Below are positions 466 to 61,811 of a stretch of 64,000 nt of DNA, piece by piece (positions within the stretch are counted from its first letter, which is position 1; each line of letters opens with the position of its first letter). Origin of the DNA: an uncultured virus (IMG/VR IMGVR_UViG_3300028805_000054) (lineage: Duplodnaviria; Heunggongvirae; Uroviricota; Caudoviricetes); the IMG/VR virus record IMGVR_UViG_3300028805_000054; one strand, given 5' to 3'. A program made the translations under genes and the position numbers. The notes beneath the pieces were generated by a model. That model did no database searches. It was not told the origin of the DNA and saw nothing but the letters and a program-made list of their open reading frames with translations.

Positions 466-771
466 ATGAAAAGAAGGTCAGATTTTTCTAGGAGGTATTT
501 GTTTTATAGAATGATACCTTTTTTCGAACCTACTGATGGAAATAGTTTTGATCCTTCGGTAGATACTAGATTGACACTTAAAACGGTAGCTTTAGTGAAA
601 CCTGAAGTAGTAAGATTCATTGGAGAGAAAGTTCTGAGAATAGTACAGAAAATACCAAAAGAACAACGTAAAAATGAATATTGGATAAAAGATTCCTTAG
701 AGAAAGAAGCCATTCGTTTGTTTGAGAGTTTTCATCCTAAGGAGATAAAAATAGAGCTTAGTTATGAGTAA
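466..771 (+). CDS. hypothetical protein
   Basis: Operon-packed ORF overlapping the next start. Confidence 0.6.
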   Translation: MKRRSDFSRRYLFYRMIPFFEPTDGNSFDPSVDTRLTLKTVALVKPEVVRFIGEKVLRIVQKIPKEQRKNEYWIKDSLEKEAIRLFESFHPKEIKIELSYE

Positions 772-3610
772 AATATTGGCAATAGCGGACATACATCTAC
801 ATGATTATCCGCAGCGTAATAGTTTTCAATTTCAACGATTATATCAAGGATCAAGAATTGTAGCTAAAAATATTATTGAAGTAGGGAAGAGGGAAGGAGC
901 GAATTACATAGCGATTTGTGGTGATCTGATAGAGAAATCGATAATCAGACCGTACGTTATGGCAGAAGCATACAATTTCCTTCATACCATCATGTCAGAG
1001 TTCAAAGAAGGTTGGATTATCTGGGGAAATCATGATATAGATGCTAAGTCGTCAGATCAAGTAATGACAGATTCTTGCTTAGCTTTATTCCTTCCTCCCA
1101 ATCTTAAGTATATGCATCAACAGCAGATAGAACTGGAGGGAAAGATTTTGGGTTTTAACAATTGGCAGCCCGACATAGATCTGAGTTGGGTAAAAGGTGA
1201 GTTAGATATGTTATTTACTCACGCTAGGATATGTTATCAGGAAGGTTCAGACTTATATCAATCACAGTACTTAGATGAATCAAAGTTTAAGATTGCATTC
1301 TGTGGTGATATACATAGACCAGGACAACTAGGAAAATATGTCAGCATTGGTATCCCTCAAAGATGTAAGATGTCGGATGGAGAAAAATCGACCGGCGTAT
1401 TGATAGATCTTGAAACGGGAGATTGGAAATGGGTAGACCTGAATCCTAAAGATAATCTAATGAAATTCCAGTATGTGACAGTTCCGGAGCAAGAAGGATG
1501 GAATGAAGCTTTTAAGACCTGGAATATCTATAAGCCAAGTACCGATAACATGATAGATCCCTCTGCAAACATAAAAGTATCGGGGTGGGAGAAAATTGAG
1601 TCTTTGGTAGATGATGCTATAAAAAAGGCGTCTCTAGTAGAAGTTCATCAGCAAGTTTTAGCCTCCATCCCAAACTTAGATGCAGGGGAAGTAGATTTCA
1701 ATTTCACCCCAGTCCGTTTCTATTGTAAGAATTGGAGAAGTATAGACGAAGTTGAAATGTTTTTTGAAGAGGGAGATAAAATCCTGATTGTTGGTGAAAA
1801 TGGATCTGGTAAGTCTAGTCTCCTATCTGCCATTAAATATGCGTTCTGTGATGTTCGTTCTACTTCTGGTCTTTCCTCACTAAAGCCATTCATTCAATTT
1901 GGTACTAAGGATTGTGTAACAGAAGTAGAGTTTATGTATCAGGGAAATCGTTGTAAGCTGAGACGTGGAACAAAAGAATATGGTCTCTGGATAAACGAGG
2001 AGCCTATGAAATATAATAGTAAGGCAGATTTTGAAGCTGATGCACGCCGTAGATTCCCATTCATTGAGTATATGGAGGTAATGATTCACGACCAAGACCA
2101 TAACCAATTTATAGGAAGTCTTACCGGCGAGAGATTAGCAGAAATAATCAGTAAAGCTTTTAAACTAGACCGCATTGATACCTATAATGATGCTGCTTCT
2201 CTTATGCTCACTCAATTGGTAAAAGGAGCTGCAGAGTGGGAATCAAAGATAGGGGAGTCAAAGAAGGTATTAGGATTTATAAACAGCAAACTAGAATCAA
2301 TTGTCTTACCTACCAAAACAAAAGAAGAGTTGACGAAGGAAAAGGATGTTATGGTTGAGCTGCAGAGGAAAAATCGAGAGTGGAATATCTTTGTGTCTAC
2401 TTCTTCACGTCTTCAAGCTGGTATAGAAAGTAGGGAAGGTGAGAAGACTGAATTGCTGGAGAAGAAACGAGCGCAAAGAGAACCGTCGATAATAGATGCG
2501 GAGATAGAGAACCTAAGAAAAGAGATTGGAGTAAAGCAGGAACGTCTTATTGAATTGGGCGGACTTAAGAATGCAATCAGGGTAAAGGAATCAGAATTAA
2601 CCCGCATAATCTCCGACGGTAAAAATCTGCGCTCGGAATTTACAGCAATAGATCCCACCAAGATTTCCTATTGTCCTACTTGTCGCCAGCAGATTATCCC
2701 CTCTCCAGAAACTATCGAAGCCTTAAAAACAAAGAAGGAAGAGATTGGAAAGAAGCTGGAGGAAAAGTTGGCTGAATATGGAAAGGTTAATCAGGAGTTA
2801 GAGCAGATGAAGAACGATTTTGGAAACTCAGACTCCGAAATTCAGGCTATCAACGGAGAGATAGGGGGATTGAATGGAGAGATTACAAAGAGGATGTCAG
2901 AAATACGAGTCGGGAAGGAAATTGAGGAGAGACTAGGGAGAGTAGAACGTGAGCTGACCGAATGGAAAACTAAATTAGCGAATCTTGGTGCTCCCGAAAA
3001 AGTTGAACTTCCTGATGATTTTATGGAGAAGATGTCAACAATAGAGTCTGGCTTATCATCATGGAACCTTTGGGAATCTGGGGTGAAAGACAAAGAGGAA
3101 CAAGAGAAGAAAGTTAAGGCCTATGAGAAAGAAGTGGAAGGTAATCGAGAACAACAGGATAAACTCAAGTCTTATATAAAACTGACAGGACCAACGGGAG
3201 TTATTTATGAGGAGGTAATGAAAAAACTAGTCTCCCAATTCAATGACAATACCGTATCCTATGAAGTTAATGTCAGAGAGTTTAGAAAGAAAGATCACCT
3301 CACTCTCGTACCACAATTCTTTAATAATGGAAATTGGGTATCTTATGAGGCTTGTAGTGGTGGTCAGAAAACGGTACTCGACATTCACTTCTTGAGCAAA
3401 ATTATAAATCGTGTTGGAATATTAATCTTGGATGAATTTTTGAAACACCTTGATCCTTCTAACCACGATCTCTGTCTCGATATGATTCAGAGTATGAGTA
3501 TTGGTTGTACCTTTGTCTCATCTCATATGGAATCTATCGCAGCATTCAATAATAAAACGTGTAGCTTGTCTCTTAATCAGTCAGGCCTCACGCAGATGAA
3601 ATTTAGTTAA
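764..3610 (+). CDS. Fused Mre11/SbcD nuclease - Rad50/SbcC ABC-ATPase
   Basis: N-terminal metallophosphoesterase motifs (ADIH, CGD, GNHD, THA, GDIH); Walker A GENGSGKS; coiled coil with zinc hook CPTC; signature CSGGQ; Walker B LILDE; H-loop SSH. Confidence 0.92.
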   Translation: MSKILAIADIHLHDYPQRNSFQFQRLYQGSRIVAKNIIEVGKREGANYIAICGDLIEKSIIRPYVMAEAYNFLHTIMSEFKEGWIIWGNHDIDAKSSDQVMTDSCLALFLPPNLKYMHQQQIELEGKILGFNNWQPDIDLSWVKGELDMLFTHARICYQEGSDLYQSQYLDESKFKIAFCGDIHRPGQLGKYVSIGIPQRCKMSDGEKSTGVLIDLETGDWKWVDLNPKDNLMKFQYVTVPEQEGWNEAFKTWNIYKPSTDNMIDPSANIKVSGWEKIESLVDDAIKKASLVEVHQQVLASIPNLDAGEVDFNFTPVRFYCKNWRSIDEVEMFFEEGDKILIVGENGSGKSSLLSAIKYAFCDVRSTSGLSSLKPFIQFGTKDCVTEVEFMYQGNRCKLRRGTKEYGLWINEEPMKYNSKADFEADARRRFPFIEYMEVMIHDQDHNQFIGSLTGERLAEIISKAFKLDRIDTYNDAASLMLTQLVKGAAEWESKIGESKKVLGFINSKLESIVLPTKTKEELTKEKDVMVELQRKNREWNIFVSTSSRLQAGIESREGEKTELLEKKRAQREPSIIDAEIENLRKEIGVKQERLIELGGLKNAIRVKESELTRIISDGKNLRSEFTAIDPTKISYCPTCRQQIIPSPETIEALKTKKEEIGKKLEEKLAEYGKVNQELEQMKNDFGNSDSEIQAINGEIGGLNGEITKRMSEIRVGKEIEERLGRVERELTEWKTKLANLGAPEKVELPDDFMEKMSTIESGLSSWNLWESGVKDKEEQEKKVKAYEKEVEGNREQQDKLKSYIKLTGPTGVIYEEVMKKLVSQFNDNTVSYEVNVREFRKKDHLTLVPQFFNNGNWVSYEACSGGQKTVLDIHFLSKIINRVGILILDEFLKHLDPSNHDLCLDMIQSMSIGCTFVSSHMESIAAFNNKTCSLSLNQSGLTQMKFS
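2452..2649. repeat. Ladder nested inverted-repeat element 1 (inside Rad50 coiled-coil CDS)
   Basis: attgctg 2452/cagcaat 2643; cgagcgca 2468/tgcgctcg 2628; accgtcg 2482/cgacggt 2614; atgcgg 2496/ccgcat 2602. Confidence 0.85.
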
Positions 3611-3611
3611 G

Positions 3612-4124
3612 GTGAATAAAAATATGAGTAAAGAAGAAATTTTGAGTGAGTATTTCTTGGTGGAATCCGAGAAGACTGATGAGATTAAAGGTTGGAAAGT
3701 GTTAGGAACTATTGAGGTTGGGGGCTATGCTTCATCTTCCGTTTCTACCATCTTCGAGTTTAAAACCGATGGAGAAAGCTGGTTATGTGATTTTAGGATT
3801 AAACTGCTTGGATGTGGTTTAGTTCTTGCCAGTCCGGAGTATGTAATAGATGAGGATGAACTGGTGATGGAGGCTGTGGAGAAAATCTGGGAAAACTGGG
3901 GAATAACACCTGAGGTCCTAGAGAAACAGATAAATGGGGAATTGTGGAAAGAGTATATAAAAACGAACCCTGGAACATGGACAACTACAACAACTTCTAG
4001 TTCTCAATGGTGGAATAATACGATAACTTGTTCAGATGCCACTACTAATTATTATGCTTCCTATCTCCCCTCCTCCGACGAATGTAAAGTAACTACTTGT
4101 ACATCAGAATATGTTACCAATTAA
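3612..4124 (+). CDS. hypothetical protein, Thr/Ser-rich C-terminus
   Basis: ORF in operon. Confidence 0.7.
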   Translation: MNKNMSKEEILSEYFLVESEKTDEIKGWKVLGTIEVGGYASSSVSTIFEFKTDGESWLCDFRIKLLGCGLVLASPEYVIDEDELVMEAVEKIWENWGITPEVLEKQINGELWKEYIKTNPGTWTTTTTSSSQWWNNTITCSDATTNYYASYLPSSDECKVTTCTSEYVTN

Positions 4125-8824: not shown

Positions 8825-10018
8825 ATGATTATTAGAAGTAAATGTGAAAACGATGTTTACAAGTGGAACATGAGTTATCTTATGATGATGAAATTCCCTA
8901 ACATGAAAGTTCGGTTCAAGTTTAAAAATAGAAGACCGGGCGAAAAGTTTGATCAAAAGTTTATTGAGGACATGAAGTTAGAACTCGCAAAACTTAGAAT
9001 GTTGAAATTAAGTGACGCAGAGAAAGCTTTCATGAAAAAGAATTTCTGGTGGATTCCGGGATGGTACTTCGACTGGTATCAACATGCGGATATTTTTAGA
9101 CCAGAAGCAGTTAAAATGTGGCTGGATGAAAACTCAGAATTCCAATGTGAGGTGGAAGATCTTGGATATATTGTGACCTTCTGGGAAACAAACATACTTC
9201 CTATCTTTGCTGAACTTAGAAATAGGACCTACGGATATACTTATGATAAGATGAATGAATCCGAAGCCCTCGAGTTGGTAAGAGAGCAGATAAATCTCTC
9301 TAACGAGCATCAACTTAAGTTTTCTGAGTTTGGATTGAGAAGAAGATTCAGTGCAACCTGGCAAGATAAGGTGGATGATATTATTAAAGCTGAAGCTAAA
9401 TATTGTGTAGGTAATAGTAATGTTTATGAAGCTTATCGTTTAGGGCAGAAAATTAGCGGTACACAAGCTCATGAAATTTATATGGCCTATAATGCTATTT
9501 ATGGTTATCGTGAGGGTAATTATAAGTGCGTAAAGGATTGGATGGAAGTATTCAACGGACATGCTGGTATTCTTTTAGGAGATACTATTGGACTTGATTC
9601 TTTCCTGAAATGTCTTACTACTTTGTATGCTAAAGCTAGTTCTGGTTATCGTCATGATTCTGGACCTTGGGAAGAAGCTACAACAAAGTATATTAAACGA
9701 CTCAAGGAACTTTATGTCAATCCTCTTCACAAATCAATCATATATTCAAACAGCATTAATATGTGGGACCTTGATGATATTGGAAATAATGTGAGAGGTA
9801 GAGTCGGAGATTTTGCTGGTGGTATGGGTGGAGCATTTACAAATAATATTCCAAGCCTTAAGCTAGCGAATCCGAATATTGTAATGAAATCTGACATGGT
9901 TCAGCTTGATGCAAATTCCTTCCCAGCTAATACAGTGAAAGTACCTGATGAGCCGGGTAAAGAAATGGGGGATCCGAAAGAGGTTGAATACTGTAAATAT
10001 GTAACAGAGCGATTATGA
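8825..10018 (+). CDS. pncB: Nicotinate phosphoribosyltransferase
   Basis: DVYKWNM, EFGLRRRFS, GNSNV, GTQAHE (phospho-His motif), GYRHDSG. Confidence 0.88.
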   Translation: MIIRSKCENDVYKWNMSYLMMMKFPNMKVRFKFKNRRPGEKFDQKFIEDMKLELAKLRMLKLSDAEKAFMKKNFWWIPGWYFDWYQHADIFRPEAVKMWLDENSEFQCEVEDLGYIVTFWETNILPIFAELRNRTYGYTYDKMNESEALELVREQINLSNEHQLKFSEFGLRRRFSATWQDKVDDIIKAEAKYCVGNSNVYEAYRLGQKISGTQAHEIYMAYNAIYGYREGNYKCVKDWMEVFNGHAGILLGDTIGLDSFLKCLTTLYAKASSGYRHDSGPWEEATTKYIKRLKELYVNPLHKSIIYSNSINMWDLDDIGNNVRGRVGDFAGGMGGAFTNNIPSLKLANPNIVMKSDMVQLDANSFPANTVKVPDEPGKEMGDPKEVEYCKYVTERL

Positions 10019-10218
10019 TAATTCCAATTTTAATTACAACTTATTTAGTCTGTGGGGCTATTTTTGAAGTGCTTTCAGAGGATAGCCAGCCAAATGTTAT
10101 AAAAAATAGTAGGATACTAAGGTTAATCACAATAATAGTAGCATTCTTTTTGTGGCTTCCTTGGCTCATAATTAATATGTGTTTTCCAAAAAGAGATATT
10201 TGGTTTAAGAAGAAATGA
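10015..10218 (+). CDS. small membrane protein
   Basis: Two hydrophobic segments; ATGA overlap. Confidence 0.6.
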   Translation: MIIPILITTYLVCGAIFEVLSEDSQPNVIKNSRILRLITIIVAFFLWLPWLIINMCFPKRDIWFKKK

Positions 10219-10451
10219 ATAGCATAGAAGAATATAAGGTGAACTTTGAGGTTGAAATTATTAAAGCAAGAAATTCAGAAACTATTGAAGAAGCTGTAAA
10301 ACATCTAAAGGAAGCTAGATATTGGATAGGGGAGATTGAGAAAGCCATACCAGAGATGAAACAGATCGAACATGACTTAACTCAGGATCTCTATAATCGC
10401 CTGAAACCTAGCGAAAAACCTTATGTAAAAACGATTAAGTTTAGAAAATGA
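10215..10451 (+). CDS. hypothetical protein
   Basis: ATGA overlaps. Confidence 0.65.
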   Translation: MNSIEEYKVNFEVEIIKARNSETIEEAVKHLKEARYWIGEIEKAIPEMKQIEHDLTQDLYNRLKPSEKPYVKTIKFRK

Positions 10452-10639
10452 TAGATAACTTAATTCTTGAAAATCTAAACAATAAATTTACAAGAGAATT
10501 GGCTAAAGGAGATCTGGTAGAAGCGGAAAAAGTTGTGAAAAGGTTGGAAGATCTATACCACCAACACACCAATGATTCCTTAGGCACTACGATCTACTTT
10601 ACGATAAGAGGTATGAAAACGTTGCTAAAGAACCAATGA
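10448..10639 (+). CDS. hypothetical protein
   Basis: ATGA overlaps. Confidence 0.6.
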   Translation: MIDNLILENLNNKFTRELAKGDLVEAEKVVKRLEDLYHQHTNDSLGTTIYFTIRGMKTLLKNQ

Positions 10640-11226
10640 AAACTATATATCCAAACGAGAAGGTGAAATTGACTAGGGGAGGAAGAAATGCTGACAAAAT
10701 AACAGTCACAGAATTCAAGAACCTAATCAAAGCAATCTATGAGAAACTGAAGAGCAAGGATAATGAACTGGAAGACTATGAATGGAATAGCCCGGCATGG
10801 ATATTCTATTTCTGTGATCGCCTCCCTAAAATTGCCAAAGACTTAAAGATTGATTTTGACTTTGAGAATATCCTTGTCTACCAAAATAAAGAATATAGTT
10901 TCAAGGAGTCAGATATTAAGATCACCCGAGGAGGAACACCATATCTAGAACTTTGGTGTGGTGGAGATTGGGAGAAAGGATTAATTGTCTATCTTTACCC
11001 TTCCGATAACACCCTGAGAGCCTATATTCCGACTAAAGGAAATAATGTCAGGAAAGATCTTAAGTGTGTATTTGGTGGGGAATCAGAAATGTACTCGGAT
11101 GTCTCTCGTCTTGCATACCTGAAGAAATATGCGAAGGAAAGTTTAGACGGAGAGGGAATAGACACGAAAGAGAATCCTGACTGGTGTTTGGAAGATTTTG
11201 AAACAAGATTAGGAGAAACATTATGA
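10636..11226 (+). CDS. hypothetical phage protein
   Basis: GGDWE...LRAYIPTKGN motif. Confidence 0.7.
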   Translation: MKTIYPNEKVKLTRGGRNADKITVTEFKNLIKAIYEKLKSKDNELEDYEWNSPAWIFYFCDRLPKIAKDLKIDFDFENILVYQNKEYSFKESDIKITRGGTPYLELWCGGDWEKGLIVYLYPSDNTLRAYIPTKGNNVRKDLKCVFGGESEMYSDVSRLAYLKKYAKESLDGEGIDTKENPDWCLEDFETRLGETL

Positions 11227-11486
11227 GTAACAAAACAGACCTAGAGCTAATCCCGGAAGTTGCAAAGCTAAGGGAACTAATGAGAGGAACGAGATTAAGG
11301 GAAGGGAAGTTAGTGGTGAAAGATTTGCCAGCTTACGTGAATTCTTTGAAGAGCGTTATCCCAATCTACCAAGAACTGAAGGACCGAGAACATTATAAGA
11401 ATACAGCTAGATATGTAGGATTTAAATTAGAAATGATTACAGAAGTTTTAAAGAATAATTATGGAATCGAACTGGAGGAAAAATAA
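11223..11486 (+). CDS. hypothetical protein
   Basis: Operon ORF. Confidence 0.6.
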   Translation: MSNKTDLELIPEVAKLRELMRGTRLREGKLVVKDLPAYVNSLKSVIPIYQELKDREHYKNTARYVGFKLEMITEVLKNNYGIELEEK

Positions 11487-12066
11487 ACCATACCTTGCCT
11501 TTAACCCGTCAGAAACAAAAAAGACTGGAGATGGATATGGTTGGTTAGTGTCGAAAGAAGATTGTAGAACTTTGTATGACGGTAGATATTGTGCTGTCTC
11601 TGGATTCTTCTATGCGGTAGTTAATGGTCAATATTCTGTGTTAGCCGAAAAACGTGGGGAAGGAACGCCAGATTTTCAAGGATGTTGGTGTTGTCCCTGT
11701 GGTTTCTTGGAAGGTGATGAAAATGCTAAAGAAGGAATCAAACGAGAAACTTACGAAGAATGTGGAGTAGAAATAGGGTATGATAAGATTAAATTTGTAG
11801 AAGCTGAAACTGAACCTGCCCTCTGTAATAATGGAAATGTAACTCTAAGACACACCGGATTTTTAGGGAAGCAACCGAAGATAGAGAGACCTGACCTATT
11901 AGAAACGGAAGAACGAGGAGGAGAGAAGAAAGAAGTTGCGGAAGTAGCCTGGATTCCTATCTCCCATGTCAATCGTTATGAGTGGGCTTTCGGACATGGA
12001 GAGGTGATTAAAGAATATGCTGAGAATCGTTTTTGGAGGTGGATCTTAGAATTACTGTACAGATGA
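11461..12066 (+). CDS. Nudix hydrolase (ADP-ribose pyrophosphatase-like)
   Basis: Nudix box GFLEGDENAKEGIKRETYEECGV; C-terminal WAFGH. Confidence 0.85.
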   Translation: MESNWRKNKPYLAFNPSETKKTGDGYGWLVSKEDCRTLYDGRYCAVSGFFYAVVNGQYSVLAEKRGEGTPDFQGCWCCPCGFLEGDENAKEGIKRETYEECGVEIGYDKIKFVEAETEPALCNNGNVTLRHTGFLGKQPKIERPDLLETEERGGEKKEVAEVAWIPISHVNRYEWAFGHGEVIKEYAENRFWRWILELLYR

Positions 12067-24947: not shown

Positions 24948-25517
24948 ATGGAAGATTATTATAAAACTAAAGTAGGAATATTCTTAGGAAGTTTTGATCC
25001 TTTTCACACTGGACATAAGGAAGCAGTTTTGGAAGCCCTAAGACGTGGAATGGATTCGGTTTGGGTTGTGCCGTCTGTTTGGAATCCTTGGAAAGATAAG
25101 CAGCCAGTTCCCATCGATGAAAGATTCTGGATTGCTCACTATGAATTGGAGAAAATAGAAAACGCCAGAGTCTTAGCCGTTGTAACCGATCCTGACCCAA
25201 CCGACGGAAAATGGTATTCGGTAGATCAACTAAGGAAAATAATCAGGGGGTATGGATCTAAGAACTATGAATTTTGGATTATCGGCGGAAAAGATGTAAC
25301 CGAGGAAATAGAGAACTGGAAAGAAGGGGATTGGATCTTGGGAAACTTTAAAACCTTGGAAATAGAATTCAAACATCAAGGAGAAGAGGTTGAAAAAATT
25401 AGTAGTACCCAAATTAGAGAGTGGATTGGGAAACGAGAATGGGATAAACTGAAAGGATTAGTATGCCCAAAATCGATTAAGTACATTCGAAATCATGAAC
25501 TCTACGTTACTGGCTAA
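24948..25517 (+). CDS. nadD: Nicotinate/nicotinamide mononucleotide adenylyltransferase
   Basis: GSFDPFHTGH (HxGH), NPWK, IIGG, ISSTQIR. Confidence 0.88.
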   Translation: MEDYYKTKVGIFLGSFDPFHTGHKEAVLEALRRGMDSVWVVPSVWNPWKDKQPVPIDERFWIAHYELEKIENARVLAVVTDPDPTDGKWYSVDQLRKIIRGYGSKNYEFWIIGGKDVTEEIENWKEGDWILGNFKTLEIEFKHQGEEVEKISSTQIREWIGKREWDKLKGLVCPKSIKYIRNHELYVTG

Positions 25518-26446: not shown

Positions 26447-28597
26447 ATGGAAAAGAAAGATATTATTGTACCTAAAGGAATAAGGTACATTGGAAATTGG
26501 AAAGAGTTTGACCTTGATAAATATAACAGCCCTTATATAATAAATAAAACACTTACGGGTTGTGGATTTACAGAGCATTGCTTGACTAATGATAAAGATA
26601 TTGTACTAATATCTCCTAGACGGTTTCTTCTTGAAAATAAAGAAGAGCAACATTCTGGAGACGTCTACTATTTCAGAAATGATAATGAAGTTTCCGTTGA
26701 TTTTGAATTAGAAATTGATAAAGATGACGTTAAGTCTATCAAAGAAAAGGCAGAGGAAACTGAGGACTCTAAGAATAAAACTTTAGAGAATCTTGATCGT
26801 ATAAAGAGAAATCTGAGGAGTGCTTACTTAACTTTTAAAAAGAATAATCCAAGTAAGCCATTCAAGATACTTGTAACATATGACTCTTTCAAACATGTTA
26901 AGGATGTTCTTAAAAATATCAAGAAAGAAGGCAGTGTCTCATACTTTGATACGGACAAGGACAGTGTTGTAAAGGCTGAAACTGAATTTGATAATTTCTT
27001 TTGTGTGGTTGATGAATTTCAGTCTATTTTCATTGATGCACGTTTCAAATCAGAAGCTGAAATAACACTTCTTAAAGAATTGGATGGTTGTAAGAGATTA
27101 TGCTATGTAAGTGCTACTCCTATGCTCGACAAGTATCTAGAGATGCTACCAGAGTTTAAAGATCTTCCTTATTATGAGCTGGATTGGGCAACAGAAGACC
27201 CAGGACGAATAAAGAAACCAAAAATTGAAATTAAGTTTACAAGATCACTTAATGAAGAGGCCAAAGCAGTAATTCATAGTTATCAGAATAAAAGATATGA
27301 GACTCGATTAAACTCAGAGACCGGGGATTTAGTAGATTCTAAAGAGGCAGTTCTATTCTTCAACTCTGTGGCTGGTATTTGTCAGGTAATCAGGACAAAT
27401 AGATTACACCTAGAGGAATGTAATATTATATGTGCTGACACTTCAAAAAATCAAGAATCTATTAGGAAAGCTTTAAACTCTGTTCTTAAGAAGGATGCTG
27501 AAGAGAAGGGGGAAACTGTAAAATATTTTACAAAGAATGATAAAGTAGTAGGTAAAATTCCAGTCAAAGGAGAGAAACATAAATTATTCACATTCTGTAC
27601 TCGAACTGTATATCTTGGTGCAGATTTCTATTCAACTAATGCTAGAACCTTTGTATTCTCAGATGCTAATATAGACTGTTTGAGTGTAGATATTAGTATG
27701 GACTTAGAGCAGATATTAGGTAGACAAAGGCTTATAGAGAACCCTTGGAAAGATTATGCTAAAGTGTTTGTTCGGACTGTTTCTAAGAAAAATATAACTA
27801 CTGAAGGGGAATTTAAAAAGAAATTAAACGCTAAGGTTAAAAATACTGAGCGATTATTAAATTCCCATAAAGAAGTAAGTTTCGAAAATAAAAAAGCTTT
27901 GGCTGGAGTATATCTAGAAAGGGCTAAAGTACAACACTATCGAAACGATTATATTTCAGTAAGAGTTATAAAAGACTGGGAAACTAATGAAGTCAAAGAG
28001 CTTATCCCAGAATTCAACAATCTTATGATGATTTCTGATATGCGAGCTTTCGAGGTTCAACAGATAGATTATAAAGATAGATTCACTGTATTCTCTACTG
28101 TTAATCAGAATGGTATCGAGGGAGCAACAATTAAGTCATGCGAATTGGTAGAAGAGTTTAATAAAATTGGTGATACTACAAAAAGACTAAAATTTCTAGT
28201 TGACATTAGTGAAGATGATCTTTTAAACAAAGATGACATAGTAGCATTTTTAGAATTAATCCCATCTAAATACAAAGATTACTATTATGATGTTGGCCCT
28301 GAAGTTATAAAGAAATGTAGATGTTTCGAGTCAGAAGTTAAGAAAGAGTGGAGACGACAAAAATCTAATGGAAAAATAGAGGATCAAGTTGTTTCTAGAA
28401 CATATGATCTCTTTAAAGTTGGAAAGAAGTACTCTAATAAATATATTAAGGATAAACTTAAAGACTTATATCAAGAACTGGAGTACAATCAAAAAGCCAA
28501 AGCTACTGATCTTGAACTCTTATACATTGTAAAAGCCATTAAACTGCAAGAAGATGGTAAGTGGGTTAATGGTCTAGAGATATTAGGTAAGAGATAA
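26447..28597 (+). CDS. SF2 helicase-like protein, paralog A (716 aa)
   Basis: Motif I-like TLTGCGFT, Ia LISPRR, II VVDEFQ, III SATP, V TRTVYLGADF, VI EQILGRQR; C-terminal KAKATDL domain. Confidence 0.75.
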   Translation: MEKKDIIVPKGIRYIGNWKEFDLDKYNSPYIINKTLTGCGFTEHCLTNDKDIVLISPRRFLLENKEEQHSGDVYYFRNDNEVSVDFELEIDKDDVKSIKEKAEETEDSKNKTLENLDRIKRNLRSAYLTFKKNNPSKPFKILVTYDSFKHVKDVLKNIKKEGSVSYFDTDKDSVVKAETEFDNFFCVVDEFQSIFIDARFKSEAEITLLKELDGCKRLCYVSATPMLDKYLEMLPEFKDLPYYELDWATEDPGRIKKPKIEIKFTRSLNEEAKAVIHSYQNKRYETRLNSETGDLVDSKEAVLFFNSVAGICQVIRTNRLHLEECNIICADTSKNQESIRKALNSVLKKDAEEKGETVKYFTKNDKVVGKIPVKGEKHKLFTFCTRTVYLGADFYSTNARTFVFSDANIDCLSVDISMDLEQILGRQRLIENPWKDYAKVFVRTVSKKNITTEGEFKKKLNAKVKNTERLLNSHKEVSFENKKALAGVYLERAKVQHYRNDYISVRVIKDWETNEVKELIPEFNNLMMISDMRAFEVQQIDYKDRFTVFSTVNQNGIEGATIKSCELVEEFNKIGDTTKRLKFLVDISEDDLLNKDDIVAFLELIPSKYKDYYYDVGPEVIKKCRCFESEVKKEWRRQKSNGKIEDQVVSRTYDLFKVGKKYSNKYIKDKLKDLYQELEYNQKAKATDLELLYIVKAIKLQEDGKWVNGLEILGKR

Positions 28598-33946: not shown

Positions 33947-34516
33947 TTATCCTGGGAGTTGCATTTGCTGAAGATCTTGAAATTTTTGGATATAAGAACC
34001 AGCGCAAAGTATGACATCCTTAACCGAAGTTTTACCGGTAAGAAGAGGAACACCATACTTCTCACAATAAAGATGAATCTGAGAATACATCTGATTACCT
34101 TCCCCGCATCTAACCACCAATTTTCCTGACGTGACTAGAGACCCGAATTCTAAGATTGGGGTGGGAGATACAGATTTATTCATAATGTTTAAGAATACAA
34201 AATCAGCCATATCCATCATCGCCATTCTCCACTGCATGGTCGCAACAAATTCGGGGTTTTCCAACGTCGGGGCTAATCTATTGGTGGGAGGAACATGCGG
34301 GTTGAAAATAATCCAGTTAGCTCCCTTAATCATCAGCAAACCTTTTAGAGGATCAGACAATTTTTCCAATCCCTCTACAAATTTAGTCTGCCAATCATTC
34401 TCGGAGGAACCAAAATCCATAGTACCACCGAGATAAACTTTAATAGCGTCATTTGTAACCACCGGCAGCTGATCGCCAGGGTACAAGACGGTAATTTTCT
34501 CACTTACTTGCAACAT
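33947..34516 (-). CDS. Nucleoside 2-deoxyribosyltransferase-like protein
   Basis: VYLGGTMD...DWQ...IFNP...SPTPILEFG...KLVVRC. Confidence 0.75.
   Translation of the reverse strand: MLQVSEKITVLYPGDQLPVVTNDAIKVYLGGTMDFGSSENDWQTKFVEGLEKLSDPLKGLLMIKGANWIIFNPHVPPTNRLAPTLENPEFVATMQWRMAMMDMADFVFLNIMNKSVSPTPILEFGSLVTSGKLVVRCGEGNQMYSQIHLYCEKYGVPLLTGKTSVKDVILCAGSYIQKFQDLQQMQLPG
34103..34301. repeat. Ladder element 10 (inside CDS)
   Basis: cccgcat/atgcggg; ccaccaa/ttggtgg; gacgt/acgtc; cccgaatt/aattcggg. Confidence 0.8.
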
Positions 34517-35799
34517 AATACTTCCTCAAGGATACCCACTGCTTTAGCTGTGGGAGGAATTGAGGTTGATTCCTTCTTTTTGTTATACATAATTAATCTA
34601 CTAGATATCCTACAAAGTCTGAGATTCTTGTAAGAGGTACCTAATTTATTTCCATCAAATGTGCGAATATCAAAATAACCACAGCTTCTTCTACCACCTA
34701 TATAGTATTGTCCTCCTTTATATCTAACAATATCATTTAGCCTATAACCACAAACTTTATATGAAGCTTGATTCTTTTTAAGTTTACCTCCTTTTAAAAT
34801 TTTAAACTTATGAATTTGACGATTATGTCTCCTAACCTGTTTCATAATATATCTATAATCTAACAGCTTAGCTCCAAAATTCTCACTAATTACAAAAGCA
34901 TCATTGTCATGATCCTTAGAGATACTATTCTGAATACGATTATATTTTGTAATATATCCCCAAGTATAGAAAACATTACTATATCTTATTCCAGATTCCC
35001 TAAGAAGATAATTCTTCATAATATTCATTACTGCTGCATCACGAAGAGATCTGGATCTCTTAAAAGACAACTTAATCTTACCTTCATGATAATCCTTGTG
35101 ACAAGTTTTACACAAAGTAATCAGGTTTCCTGGAGAGTTACCCCCTATCTTTCTTGATACAATATGATGTACATTTAAGATCTTATCACCAGACCTACCT
35201 TTACAATGTTGACAGGTGTGATTATCCCGGGACAAAATATACTCTCTAATATTCCAGAAATCTTTTTGCGGCCCCTCCTGATATTGTACTCCACTAATAC
35301 TAGGGTTATTTATCTTCTGAGGATCAAAAGAACCAACTTCAATAATAAGTTTTGTGATTGGAAGAATAGAGTAGACTAGATCTATCAGTTTAAAGTGAAA
35401 TTGTATCTTATTCTGTATAGAGGGTGCTATCCAACCAGGTTTCTTAGTTTTTATTCTATTCAGAAATCTAGCCTCTCTGTGACGAAGTCTTCCTCTTCTA
35501 GTTCTTCTAACTTCTCTCCTAGTTGAAAGGAGATTTACTATATCTGTTCTTAATTCACCTATCCCACAAAATAATTCTTCTTTTGAAGTAGTAGCAGATA
35601 GGCCAACATGTTTTGACCCACTGTCTACGCCAAGAGTAATATTTTGTGTATATCTTTTCTTTTCTGTGGTCAACTGGATTGTGAATGGTTCTTTTCTTAC
35701 CACCACTGCTTGACCTGTTTTAAGTAGCCACCTGACATGTCCTAATCTTTTAGTAGGCATTAAAGGCGTGCCATCATAGTTCAATACATATACAATCAT
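34504..35799 (-). CDS. iscB: RNA-guided endonuclease IscB
   Basis: PLMP domain; RuvC-I LGVDSG; Arg-rich RRTRR bridge helix; RuvC-II IIEV; HNH CQHC..HHIV..N..TLCKTCH; RuvC-III HDNDA. Confidence 0.95.
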   Translation of the reverse strand: MIVYVLNYDGTPLMPTKRLGHVRWLLKTGQAVVVRKEPFTIQLTTEKKRYTQNITLGVDSGSKHVGLSATTSKEELFCGIGELRTDIVNLLSTRREVRRTRRGRLRHREARFLNRIKTKKPGWIAPSIQNKIQFHFKLIDLVYSILPITKLIIEVGSFDPQKINNPSISGVQYQEGPQKDFWNIREYILSRDNHTCQHCKGRSGDKILNVHHIVSRKIGGNSPGNLITLCKTCHKDYHEGKIKLSFKRSRSLRDAAVMNIMKNYLLRESGIRYSNVFYTWGYITKYNRIQNSISKDHDNDAFVISENFGAKLLDYRYIMKQVRRHNRQIHKFKILKGGKLKKNQASYKVCGYRLNDIVRYKGGQYYIGGRRSCGYFDIRTFDGNKLGTSYKNLRLCRISSRLIMYNKKKESTSIPPTAKAVGILEEVLCCK

Positions 35800-36140
35800 A
35801 ATAATTAAATTTAATTAATAACTTCATTCCCCTAAGGGAAGTTAGGCTCCCATCGTCAATGTTATTATGTGGTTTAATTGTTATCAACACTTTCCCTACC
35901 CCATAGGAATGTTTAATCAATAACCGTAGAGCTACAGACTTGGAAGAATTTACATCCGTAGGTACCTATTGTATAGAAGGTTGAATACAAAACAACTCCT
36001 CTACATTCACACATAACGTAGTTCATCTCTTTCTATCATCTCGTGATACATAGAGACTTCACTTAGACTAATCAGCATAGGGCATTTACATTCCCTCGAC
36101 CAGATATTTTTATAATATCGTTCAGTCGTGGGTTACTGAC
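34504..36140 (-). mobile_element. Non-autonomous IS200/IS605-family IscB (OMEGA) element
   Basis: Begins GTCAGTAACCCACGACTGAA on the minus strand; ends with subterminal hairpin CCCACAGCTAAAGCAGTGGG; no tnpA. Confidence 0.85.
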
Positions 36141-36160
36141 TTACTTGTAACATTATATTA
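35810..36160 (-). ncRNA. omega-RNA (HEARO-like) scaffold with 5' guide of about 16-20 nt (36141-~36160)
   Basis: Non-coding region upstream of iscB with typical motifs (GTCAGTAACCC, GATTAGTCTAAG, CTACGTTA, GCTCTACGG, ACATTGACGATGGG). Confidence 0.8.
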
Positions 36161-36164
36161 AAAC

Positions 36165-36175
36165 CAAATTTAAGG
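36165..36175 (-). promoter_or_regulatory. Promoter-like motif CCTTAAATTTG driving guide/omega-RNA
   Basis: Motif variant that also contains the Bacteroidota -7 consensus TAnnTTTG. Confidence 0.6.
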
Positions 36176-36209
36176 AGAAAGGAAACTATCCTCTCTCCGA
36201 TTTCACATT

Positions 36210-36791
36210 CTAGCACCAATCTTCCAAAACCAATTTTCCTTCGTAGATATCCCTGAGAGACTTTAGATCTCCCTTGAATAACATGATAGAGGCTTCAGAA
36301 TATTCGTGCGTTCCATATTCTACCATAGCCTGATGAAAAATATACTTCCTTTCCCCTGACATAGCTTTATACTCTGAGAAATCTTTTATAATACAAAGTT
36401 TTCTCTTATTCTTCACTGCTTCCTGTATATCCTTCTGTAGTTCTTCTTTCGGATAACCATGGAGAGGTATAAATTCGGTAGTCTTCAGTTCTTTCTTTAG
36501 GGCACATTCCAAGAAAGAGTTAATGATACCCTGAAAAACATTCATACTATTTTCATTTATCCCAATCGCCATCTTATTTTCCGAAGCCTTAATGATTGAT
36601 CCTCCATTATCTATTGGGAATGTGATTATGGCAGTTCTATCATTAAACCATTCAACTTCAGTATCTTTAGGAACACTAGGATTATCAGTGACCATGCCAG
36701 AGAAATTATTGAAATATCTCATCATCAAGTAAGTTTCAACACTTAAGGTAATTCTTCTCTTCTCTGGGTTATATCCAGGCTGTACATTCAT
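36210..36791 (-). CDS. hypothetical protein
   Basis: Follows promoter motif 36817-36827. Confidence 0.75.
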   Translation of the reverse strand: MNVQPGYNPEKRRITLSVETYLMMRYFNNFSGMVTDNPSVPKDTEVEWFNDRTAIITFPIDNGGSIIKASENKMAIGINENSMNVFQGIINSFLECALKKELKTTEFIPLHGYPKEELQKDIQEAVKNKRKLCIIKDFSEYKAMSGERKYIFHQAMVEYGTHEYSEASIMLFKGDLKSLRDIYEGKLVLEDWC

Positions 36792-36828: not shown

Positions 36829-37425
36829 TTACAGGGGTCGGTTTACGTGATTTCTTATGTTTACCAAGAAATCGAAGACTCCCGGACTTTCTAAGGGTTT
36901 CATTTTTCTCATCTCCGCACATAAGGCTCTAAATTCTTTCTTCTGTACGCTTCCTTTTTCCAGGTGTGATATTCGGTAAGTCTTGATTCCTATTCCCTCC
37001 AAGTATAAATCTCTCAGTCCGTCTTTCTTACCGTTGTGATATTCCGAATCTAGTTCTACGGCAAGTCTTAGGGTGGGGAAATAATAGTCTAGGAGAAAGA
37101 AACCACCCTCTACTCCAGCCGTTCTTTTCAGATTCGAGATTACAACGGGGAATTCACGGACTACAACTAATGGATCCCAAAAGCCGATATTAATCAAGAA
37201 ATCAAAGAACTTAGCTTGGAGAGATCGTTTCTTTAGTTGCTTCATCCGGGTAAAACGTTTGATTGAAGTTGGGGATGGGTAGACTGTATTTTTGAAATTA
37301 TAGACTCTTCCCTTCTCAGACACCGAATAAACAGGATAAGGCTGCCATGGAATATCTGGGAAGGTGAAAGTCTCTAAGTAATTTTTCTCCTTCATATCTT
37401 CATTATAAAAAGAGAGGAGTGACAA
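36829..37425 (-). CDS. DUF559/Vsr-like PD-(D/E)xK endonuclease (start may be 37395)
   Basis: LLDYYFP..LAVELDSEYH...D..RD..L...GIKTYRI. Confidence 0.75.
   Translation of the reverse strand: MSLLSFYNEDMKEKNYLETFTFPDIPWQPYPVYSVSEKGRVYNFKNTVYPSPTSIKRFTRMKQLKKRSLQAKFFDFLINIGFWDPLVVVREFPVVISNLKRTAGVEGGFFLLDYYFPTLRLAVELDSEYHNGKKDGLRDLYLEGIGIKTYRISHLEKGSVQKKEFRALCAEMRKMKPLESPGVFDFLVNIRNHVNRPL
37016..37162. repeat. Ladder element 11 (inside CDS)
   Basis: agtccgt/acggact; ccgttgt/acaacgg; cgaatct/agattcg; acggc/gccgt; agggtgg/ccaccct. Confidence 0.88.
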
Positions 37426-61391: not shown

Positions 61392-61811
61392 TCAGTGTTT
61401 ACGTTTCTCCAGTTCATCCTTCATAAAATTTGTAATGCCAATCTTAATATTATCTTGCTCATCGCTCCATTTTTCTAGCTCTTCCCAATATTCTAGAGTT
61501 GGGTCATCACATTCTAACATCCAAAGGTCGAAATAATGTTGAATCACTTTAATAGGGTATGATTTTCCTGCAGATGTTCTTTCTTGTAACATAACCATCT
61601 CACCTTTCGGAAGATTGGACCTAAGATACTCAACATCAATAGAGCATTCAATTTCTAAGTCAGGATCAAACCGAATTTCCCACCATCCTATATTCTGACT
61701 ATCCTCTAAGCCAGTAATAGGATAAAATTCATTTCCTATCTTTACAATTACCTTAGCACTATTTTCTTCACTCTCCAACTTCCTTAATATATCGTCACTC
61801 CAAATTATCAT
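61392..61811 (-). CDS. hypothetical protein
   Basis: Operon ORF. Confidence 0.65.
   Translation of the reverse strand: MIIWSDDILRKLESEENSAKVIVKIGNEFYPITGLEDSQNIGWWEIRFDPDLEIECSIDVEYLRSNLPKGEMVMLQERTSAGKSYPIKVIQHYFDLWMLECDDPTLEYWEELEKWSDEQDNIKIGITNFMKDELEKRKH

Follow-up and report, generated by a model that had tools for sequence, protein, structure and literature searches.

The stretch of DNA examined here, referred to as the window, comprises 64,000 nucleotides (nt) of a large phage from the ruminant gut (IMG/VR record IMGVR_UViG_3300028805_000054). On its minus strand, a nucleoside 2-deoxyribosyltransferase-like (dRT-like) gene is preceded by the gene for the nuclease IscB and by the scaffold of the omega-RNA that would guide it. 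Nuclease gene and scaffold belong to an intact, non-autonomous element of the IS200/IS605 type at 36140–34517. The features of the locus, including the right end (RE) and left end (LE) of the element and a hexamer resembling a target-adjacent motif (TAM), are collected in Table 1.

Table 1. Features of the IscB element and its flanks, in minus-strand order
Feature	Position	Strand	Basis
Upstream gene	36210–36791	-	
Terminator-like hairpin after the upstream gene, then TTAAATTTGG	36174–36198	-	sigma-70/terminator scan; same layout in L138
Omega-RNA guide, 16 nt, ATAATGTTACAAGTAA	36141–36156	-	scaffold start at 36140; alignment to empty alleles
Copy 1, ATGTTACAAGTAA, first 13 nt of the gene in native position	36141–36153	-	alignment to empty alleles
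RE subterminal hairpin	36093–36132	-	single-stranded DNA fold, z about -2.4; 8 nt from element boundary
Omega-RNA (HEARO) scaffold	35841–36140	-	Rfam RF02033, 92.3 bits (cutoff 83), E 8e-19, full model
iscB, 431 amino acids	34504–35799	-	Pfam RRXRR (PF14239) 6.6e-55; HNH (PF01844) 3.7e-08
LE subterminal hairpin	34535–34554	-	single-stranded DNA fold, z about -2.4; 18 nt from terminus
LE (hairpin and terminus)	34517–34554	-	18-nt conserved terminus TATCCTTGAGGAAGTATT, end at 34517
Copy 2, ATGTTGCAAGTAA	34504–34516	-	12/13 identical to copy 1; direct-repeat search
dRT-like gene, 189 amino acids, intact	33947–34516	-	PF15891, 2.7e-14
GTGAGA, TAM-like hexamer	34498–34503	-	family TAM logo; counterparts in relatives

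The IscB of the window matches solved IscB structures at an E value of 1e-45, and its motifs GVDSGS, IIEVGSF, VHHI and KDHDNDAF (RuvC-I, RuvC-II, HNH and RuvC-III) align with those of the solved proteins, so that the catalytic motifs of the split RuvC and of the HNH inserted in it are intact, as the initial annotation of this DNA had proposed. The gene is under purifying selection, with a ratio of nonsynonymous to synonymous substitution rates (dN/dS) of 0.10 against each of two sister copies, L083 and L084, at a dS of about 0.6. Directly 5' of iscB and on the same strand lies the HEARO scaffold, the sole Rfam match across the 64 kb. Subterminal hairpins are present at both ends, that of the LE being kept in relatives, and this is the IS200/IS605 geometry known from IS608. 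No match to the transposase TnpA (Y1, PF01797) was found among the 71 open reading frames (ORFs) of at least 110 amino acids in the window, and the element is therefore non-autonomous. Since only about 1.5% of iscB genes have tnpA nearby, according to a preprint (10.1101/2023.03.14.532601), this state is the usual one.

The two sister copies, both from one metagenome scan, are inserted elsewhere, one at L083 and one at L084 (the same as L085), and encode IscB proteins 89–90% identical to that of the window. In the orientation of iscB, the three have in common everything from the scaffold start (G/A)TCAGTAACCC through ...GGTATCCTTGAGGAAGTATT; past this terminus they part, into ATGTTGCAAG in the window, ATGAAACTAA in L084 and ATGATACTTA in L083. 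The conserved element end is thus ...GAGGAAGTATT at 34517. At the other side, contigs from two public ruminant-gut sequencing runs (X4 and X5, possibly one data set filed twice) part from the window exactly at 36140. The element bounds given above rest on these two divergences, and the mapping of the scaffold start to 36140 sets the end of the guide at 36141.

The two copies of the gene start

The guide is made of native DNA, namely 3 nt of leader and the first 13 nt of the gene. On the minus strand, the terminator-like hairpin (36198–36174) is followed by TTAAATTTGGTTTTAATATA, by copy 1 (36153–36141) and by GTCAGTAACC, with which the element begins. A promoter motif had been proposed at 36165–36175; the sigma-70 scan found none there and returned the terminator-like hairpin just upstream instead. 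The 17 nt that end at the element read TATAATGTTACAAGTAA (36157–36141), and their counterpart at the far end reads TATTATGTTGCAAGTAA (34520–34504), followed by GTGAGA. Re-reading of the sequence gives the coordinates, the 15/17 identity and the mismatches 8 and 14 nt from the junction that had been recorded for this pair. The duplication therefore stands, but not its length, as the element ends defined by the sister copies leave a unit of 13 nt, 12 of which are identical. The TATT of the downstream stretch is not duplicated at all: it belongs to the element's own conserved terminus, common to L083 and L084/85. Similarly, the likeness of GTCAG and GTGAG beyond the two copies compares the first bases of the element with native sequence. 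The downstream copy had also been described as recoded, which overstates two mismatches that do exist, one being a single synonymous change and the other stemming from the end of the element.

Copy 2 is placed between the conserved LE terminus and the rest of the gene, and provides the start codon of the dRT-like gene as well as the stop codon of iscB. The end of iscB reads ...GAGGAAGTATTATGTTGCAAGTAA, then GTGAGAAAATT; its stop is the TAA at 34506–34504, the final codon of the downstream copy, in agreement with the earlier description, and the protein acquires a locus-specific tail, ...LCCK*. The dRT-like gene is complete, and its start codon (ATG at 34516) overlaps the end of iscB. A repeat search ranked the junction pair first among the direct repeats of the region, with 21 identical positions in 25 nt and a spacing of 1637. 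The 15-mer ATGTTACAAGTAAGT, with at most two mismatches, has four matches in the window, where 0.23 would be expected by chance; the junction pair accounts for two of them. The other two near-copies of ATGTTACAAG..., at 26865–26879 (-) and 61578–61592 (-), extend into no further identity with the guide and are without purines at TAM positions 3–4. IS200/IS605 elements are the textbook case of insertion without target duplication. This rule fails at the window copy, where a 13-nt direct repeat (12/13) flanks the element.

Empty and filled alleles

Alleles with a single gene start and no element were found at three loci, each start following the hairpin and leader. Their genes are 70% (L001, amino acid identity), 67% (L002) and 81% (L138) identical to the dRT-like gene; the upstream gene is syntenic in L001, and L138, also syntenic, belongs to a 376-kb contig titled as a metagenome-assembled genome of Bacilli, in whose record no IscB was found with the query used. 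Their N-termini (MIQLSDK, MQNLNDR and MIQLNEK, respectively) are of the same length as MLQVSEK in the window, and the ATG of copy 1 aligns with the single ATG of L138 and L001. Two proposals of the initial annotation are thereby borne out. The guide corresponds to the native gene start, and with the downstream copy the N-terminus regains its native length (MLQVSEK, as compared with MIQLNEK and MIQLSDK).

Further alleles came from contigs of the public ruminant-gut runs X1, X3, X4 and X5; all joints were placed at 85% likeness, each being weak alone. Among the 24 sequencing runs listed, none is recorded as RNA. A contig of X1, possibly the source sample of the window, joins 34516 to 36164 and skips the element, with 52 differences in 350 nt; contigs of X3 join 34519 to 36162 and 34520 to 36170, again skipping it, the short side of one of these joints being only 23 letters long. 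A contig of X4/X5 covers 33981–34563, that is, the junction between the gene and the end of iscB, and represents a filled allele. The locus is thus polymorphic for presence and absence of the element, being empty in L001, L002, L138, X1 and X3 and filled in the window, in the X4/X5 contig and in a contig encoding a diverged IscB (P0123). As these empty alleles carry a single copy and not a tandem pair, the possibility that both copies existed before the insertion was rejected.

The P0123 protein is identical to the window IscB at 392/431 positions (about 9% diverged), lies on another contig and ends in the same LCCK tail, which implies TTG in its downstream copy and shows that the arrangement is inherited. 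The exact IscB of the window is itself present on two contigs. The 90% protein cluster of the window IscB has ten members that are full-length or have an intact C-terminus; the window IscB and P0123 end in EEVLCCK*, and the remaining eight end in EEVL* or EEVS*, consistent with ATGA after the terminus.

A copy of the guide at the 3' end was rejected as a family trait on two comparisons. For 18 relatives with Rfam-mapped scaffold starts, the guide agrees with the iscB 3' region at 9–13 of 16 positions in 17 cases, the exception being L035 (14/16), where the match lies inside conserved iscB coding sequence; when the sequence upstream of iscB was compared with the 3' end of the gene at 82 loci, the best-matching 16-mer agreed at 11–14 of 16 positions. 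The guide match in L035 concerns a stretch 26 nt before its own iscB stop (L035:2265–2280), and this element may have inserted beside the remnant of a related one. Neither sister insertion has the arrangement. In L083, joining of the flanks yields a clean junction at which the stop of one ORF and the start of the next overlap in ATGA, and the downstream gene of L084 has a start matching that of paralogues in the same locus. A candidate duplication in L084 (15/24, ungapped) was discarded, being explained by the shared ATGAA start and A-richness, with the remaining 10/19 not above chance by our own estimate. In L083, neighbouring ORFs at 1916, 2563 and 4875 (+) begin with MIIQRLF, MIIQRLF and MIIKRLL, and the second of these has just 36 codons and runs into the omega-RNA scaffold.

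Against INPHARED phages, blastn gave one 82-nt match and tblastn at most 49% identity; a single-protein pattern scan of viral contigs for IscB gave no relative; and the LE-end pattern ATCCTTGAGGAAGTATT gave 22 matches in viral contigs, all of them chance coding matches without iscB. The scaffold-start pattern had one match, L115, a viral contig of 131 kb carrying a full-length HEARO/omega-RNA (L115:2999–3232 (+), 126 bits) that is not followed by iscB; the ORF after it (3285–3668) encodes an unrelated protein of 127 amino acids. This RNA is either a guide RNA that stands alone or a derivative lacking IscB.

Insertion habit of the lineage

The flanks of related elements were surveyed at 80 phage loci with IscB relatives at 53–61% identity and at 32 metagenome loci. 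De-duplication at 30 nt left 40 flanks, in which near-identical sites are still counted repeatedly (about 21 distinct sites by eye). Directly past the terminus, 25 flanks read ATGAA, two ATGAT, and one each ATGAC, ATAAA and ATGTT, the last being the window; the other ten are mis-hits of the search expression inside coding sequence or elsewhere, which leaves 30 TAM-type flanks. As read from these 30 insertion flanks, the TAM of the lineage is ATGAA. Pairwise alignment of the 3' regions likewise places the break of homology directly after the T-rich terminus, before ATGA. According to the preprint cited above (10.1101/2023.03.14.532601), the transposon RE delimits the IscB omega-RNA, and a single TAM is recognised by both TnpA and IscB. 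For GstIscB this TAM is TTCAT, written 5' of the LE; in the orientation of iscB it corresponds to ATGAA, 3' of the target, in agreement with the flank survey. The survey thus yields a natural TAM logo for a large clade of phage IscBs that are compact, at 406–431 amino acids.

A downstream ORF of at least 50 codons is opened on the same strand by 21 of the 29 ATG-type flanks, and in the sisters and in a large clade with IscBs of 414 amino acids the iscB stop is the TGA of ATGA. The elements of this lineage therefore normally lie immediately before a start codon, without disturbing the gene, and the position of the stop inside ATGA suggests translational coupling of iscB to the host gene. The window fails the rule that the family TAM abuts the LE: the pentamer found there is ATGTT, and the TAM-like GTGAG follows 13 nt further on. 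GTGAGA had been taken as the TAM because it fits NWRRNA, the motif of OgeuIscB. The fit is real, and T2, G3 and A4 of the lineage TAM are kept, but the flanks give ATGAA, from which GTGAGA differs at position 1. Use of neighbouring TAMs at one locus has a precedent in the survey: in different phage contigs, L068 occupies a TAM 12 nt upstream of that used in the L034 group, the adjoining sites being ATGAAACAGACA, then ATGAAAACACTGG, and the occupants being different family members.

Origin of the duplication and its possible consequence

The 13-nt unit is exactly the interval between two TAM-like motifs, ATGTT at position +1 of the gene and GTGAG at +14, to which ATGAT and ATGAA correspond in L138. 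The hexamers at +1 are ATGTTG in the window, ATGATT in L138 and ATGATA in L001; those at +14 are GTGAGA in the window, ATGAAA in L138, ATGATA in L002 and GTGATA in L001. In relatives, both positions carry pentamers that the lineage uses elsewhere. On the plus strand, the order is TCTCAC, TTACTTGCAACAT, the element from LE to an RE ending in CTGAC, TTACTTGTAACAT, and TATATT, so that every boundary follows CAC, CAT or GAC, of the type cleaved by TnpA. From this arrangement we conclude that the duplication is probably a rare by-product of TnpA-type events, or of recombination, at two adjacent TAM sites, a use of neighbouring sites for which L068 and the L034 group provide the precedent. Insertions at both sites in different genomes could have been followed by recombination within the 1.6-kb element; alternatively, an aberrant excision or strand transfer could have taken 13 nt along before reintegration into an empty allele. 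In either case, the duplication would have been retained because the gene stays intact and functional. Integration of the Campbell type was discarded, in view of the missing integrase and of element ends of IS605 type.

The consequence that such a structure could have for spread of the element follows from the rules described for OgeuIscB. Its guide is about 16 nt long, purines are needed at TAM positions 3–4, and mismatches at positions 1–14 abolish cleavage (Kato et al. 2022; PMC9640706); the TAM is given as NWRRNA in PMC12660989, a pattern that GTGAGA, ATGAAA and ATGATA all fit. By analogy, close empty alleles would offer a match to the guide next to GTGAGA, with purines at positions 3–4, and would be cuttable by IscB, whereupon the element would be copied into the cut allele by recombination during co-infection. 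Three other sites would escape cutting: the DNA of the guide itself, since the hexamer after it is GTCAGT, whose third position is a pyrimidine; copy 2, through its mismatches to the guide at positions 8 and 14; and the donor joint expected from canonical TnpA cleavage, in which ATGTTG adjoins the target. That the element homes on empty alleles and protects itself by these two mismatches is a coherent but unproven idea, to which we would give somewhat less than an even chance at this locus. Purifying selection on iscB, the full HEARO scaffold and the occurrence of filled and empty alleles in the same habitat fit it. The fuller version, in which the element would be a transposase-independent, RNA-guided homing cassette that brings its own 13-nt substitute for the gene start, cleaves alleles without the element in co-infecting phages and leaves its own copy immune through one synonymous mid-guide mismatch and one mismatch derived from its terminus, is more tentative, and we consider it rather doubtful as a whole. 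As a joint explanation of the locus, an intact IscB element whose duplication arose through TnpA-type events at two adjacent TAM-like sites, with homing as a putative consequence, is the one we favour, at slightly better than an even chance.

Several observations weigh against this joint explanation. Its account of the origin is inferred from structure, and neither of the two single-site insertion forms was seen among the alleles examined. The arrangement occurs in one lineage (0/18 mapped distant relatives, 0/2 sister insertions), the window ORFs surveyed include no TnpA match, and divergence is too great in the assembled empty alleles for these to serve as targets themselves, L138 agreeing with the guide at 10 of 16 positions by eye. 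Position 1 is G in GTGAGA but A in each of the 29 remaining TAM-type flanks, and the IscB of the window may not accept this hexamer. In a phmmer comparison with OgeuIscB only parts of the proteins align, the best stretch covering residues 105–341 of 431 (E 7e-44); the C-terminal, TAM-reading part falls outside it, and the TAM rules of OgeuIscB may therefore not transfer.

The strongest competing explanation regards the structure as a neutral by-product and IscB as idle at this locus, the protein being kept intact by selection on the family through TnpA-coupled restorative homing at other sites. The confinement to one lineage and the departure of the TAM at +14 from the consensus are in its favour, as is the fact that TnpA cutting at the canonical 18-nt distance would leave a donor joint with ATGTTG beside the target. 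It accords less well with the persistence of iscB, scaffold and LCCK tail through about 9% of protein divergence, with the coexistence of filled and empty alleles in one habitat and with a guide-plus-TAM geometry in the empty alleles that fits known rules; we regard it as a serious minority possibility.

A different history, to which we assign a slightly lower probability, would reverse the roles of the two copies. The element would have inserted in the usual way 5' of the start codon with ATGTT as TAM, the gene would never have been broken, and the 13 nt on the guide side would be the extra copy; the register of the guide would have moved by 13 nt, from a target flanked by ATGTTG, with a pyrimidine at TAM position 4, to one flanked by GTGAGA, thereby making homing possible. 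The distance of 18 nt from the LE hairpin to the ATG lies inside the range of 17–21 nt seen in ten relatives, and a position before a start codon is the norm for the lineage; distance and habit together favour insertion before the ATG. The purines needed by OgeuIscB at TAM positions 3–4 are also in keeping with such a move. However, ATGTT breaks the A at position 4 that is kept in the other 29/29 TAM-type flanks, and an equally unusual event would be needed to bring 13 nt to the RE flank; the logic of guide and TAM favours insertion at +14.

Autoregulation is improbable. A ribonucleoprotein bound without cutting to the copy with two mismatches could damp transcription of the downstream gene or its own expression, and a near-match with a TAM-like motif does lie exactly at the overlap of iscB stop and gene start. 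The guide would pair with the template strand, however, an orientation that gives only weak roadblocks with dCas9. Moreover, mismatches at positions 1–14 prevent a cleavage-competent heteroduplex in OgeuIscB (PMC9640706). An assembly artefact or chimera producing a false repeat, for which nothing speaks except the general risk of metagenome assembly, is very improbable given the LCCK tail of the independent, diverged P0123 protein on another contig, the X4/X5 contigs that cross the gene/iscB-end junction (33981–34563) and the presence of the exact window IscB on two contigs.

Protein, RNA and end structure place the element of the window among the IscB/OMEGA elements of IS200/IS605 kind, and two features of that family fail in it, namely the lack of target duplication and the abutment of the family TAM on the LE. 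OMEGA nucleases are thought to re-install their element at the donor joint. The window copy departs from both expectations, as the 13-nt repeat rebuilds the gene and the guide is aimed at empty alleles and not at a joint that the ends of the element could make. It shares with the ISGst-type IS605 elements of GstIscB (Meers et al., 10.1101/2023.03.14.532601) an RE-bounded HEARO before iscB, a guide taken from the RE flank and non-autonomy, and the wider lineage shares the TAM abutting the LE and its pentamer (TTCAT, equal to ATGAA). It differs from them in the 13 target nt duplicated between LE and TAM-like motif, in the ATGTT at the LE, in its phage host and in its likely targets, which would be empty alleles in other phages, in place of the donor joint on a sister chromosome. 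With OgeuIscB it has in common the aligning RuvC and HNH motifs, a guide of 16 nt and a TAM on the 3' side that has purines at positions 3–4, whereas the partial alignment of the two proteins means that the TAM specificity of the window cannot be transferred from OgeuIscB.

Free-standing homing endonuclease genes of T-even phages (Seg, Mob) offer a second comparison. According to a 2026 review (PMC13565253), these are likewise nuclease genes between conserved phage genes, polymorphic for presence at the locus, with a self allele a few substitutions away from the target and an expected spread by co-infection; recognition in the window would in contrast be RNA-guided, with a guide from the flank, and the element has transposon ends and sisters at unrelated loci. 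The same source lists "non-restorative homing" of transposons on co-infecting phages as a category and cites a plasmid gene-drive result for a TnpB without TnpA. IStrons, which combine an IS605-type element with a group I intron (PMC4227781, PMC10690162), also render an OMEGA-type element harmless to its host gene, through RNA splicing in their case and in the window through a DNA copy of the first 13 nt and translation restart at the element end. The limited literature searched contained no paper on IscB homing in phages or on a target copy carried at an IS605 end. We are thus dealing with one lineage of unusual and instructive structure, which could let the element spread between co-infecting phages. 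If the nuclease accepts GTGAGA, it would constitute a natural "recoded-target" gene drive between phages, and would link transposon-borne guide RNAs directly with phage homing endonucleases.

Some neighbouring genes of the window deserve mention. Two genes upstream, an ORF of 198 amino acids (36829–37425 (-)) has sub-threshold similarity to NUMOD4, DUF559 and a PvuRts1I-like N-terminal domain (E 7e-4 to 3e-3), and may encode a second nuclease of homing type adjoining the IscB element. Elsewhere, the window carries NAD-salvage-type genes (NAPRTase, NUDIX and a cytidylyltransferase-like protein; 8825–12066 and 24948–25517), a fused Mre11/Rad50-like ORF (764–3610), HSP20 and a formyltransferase, which is the gene content of a large phage.

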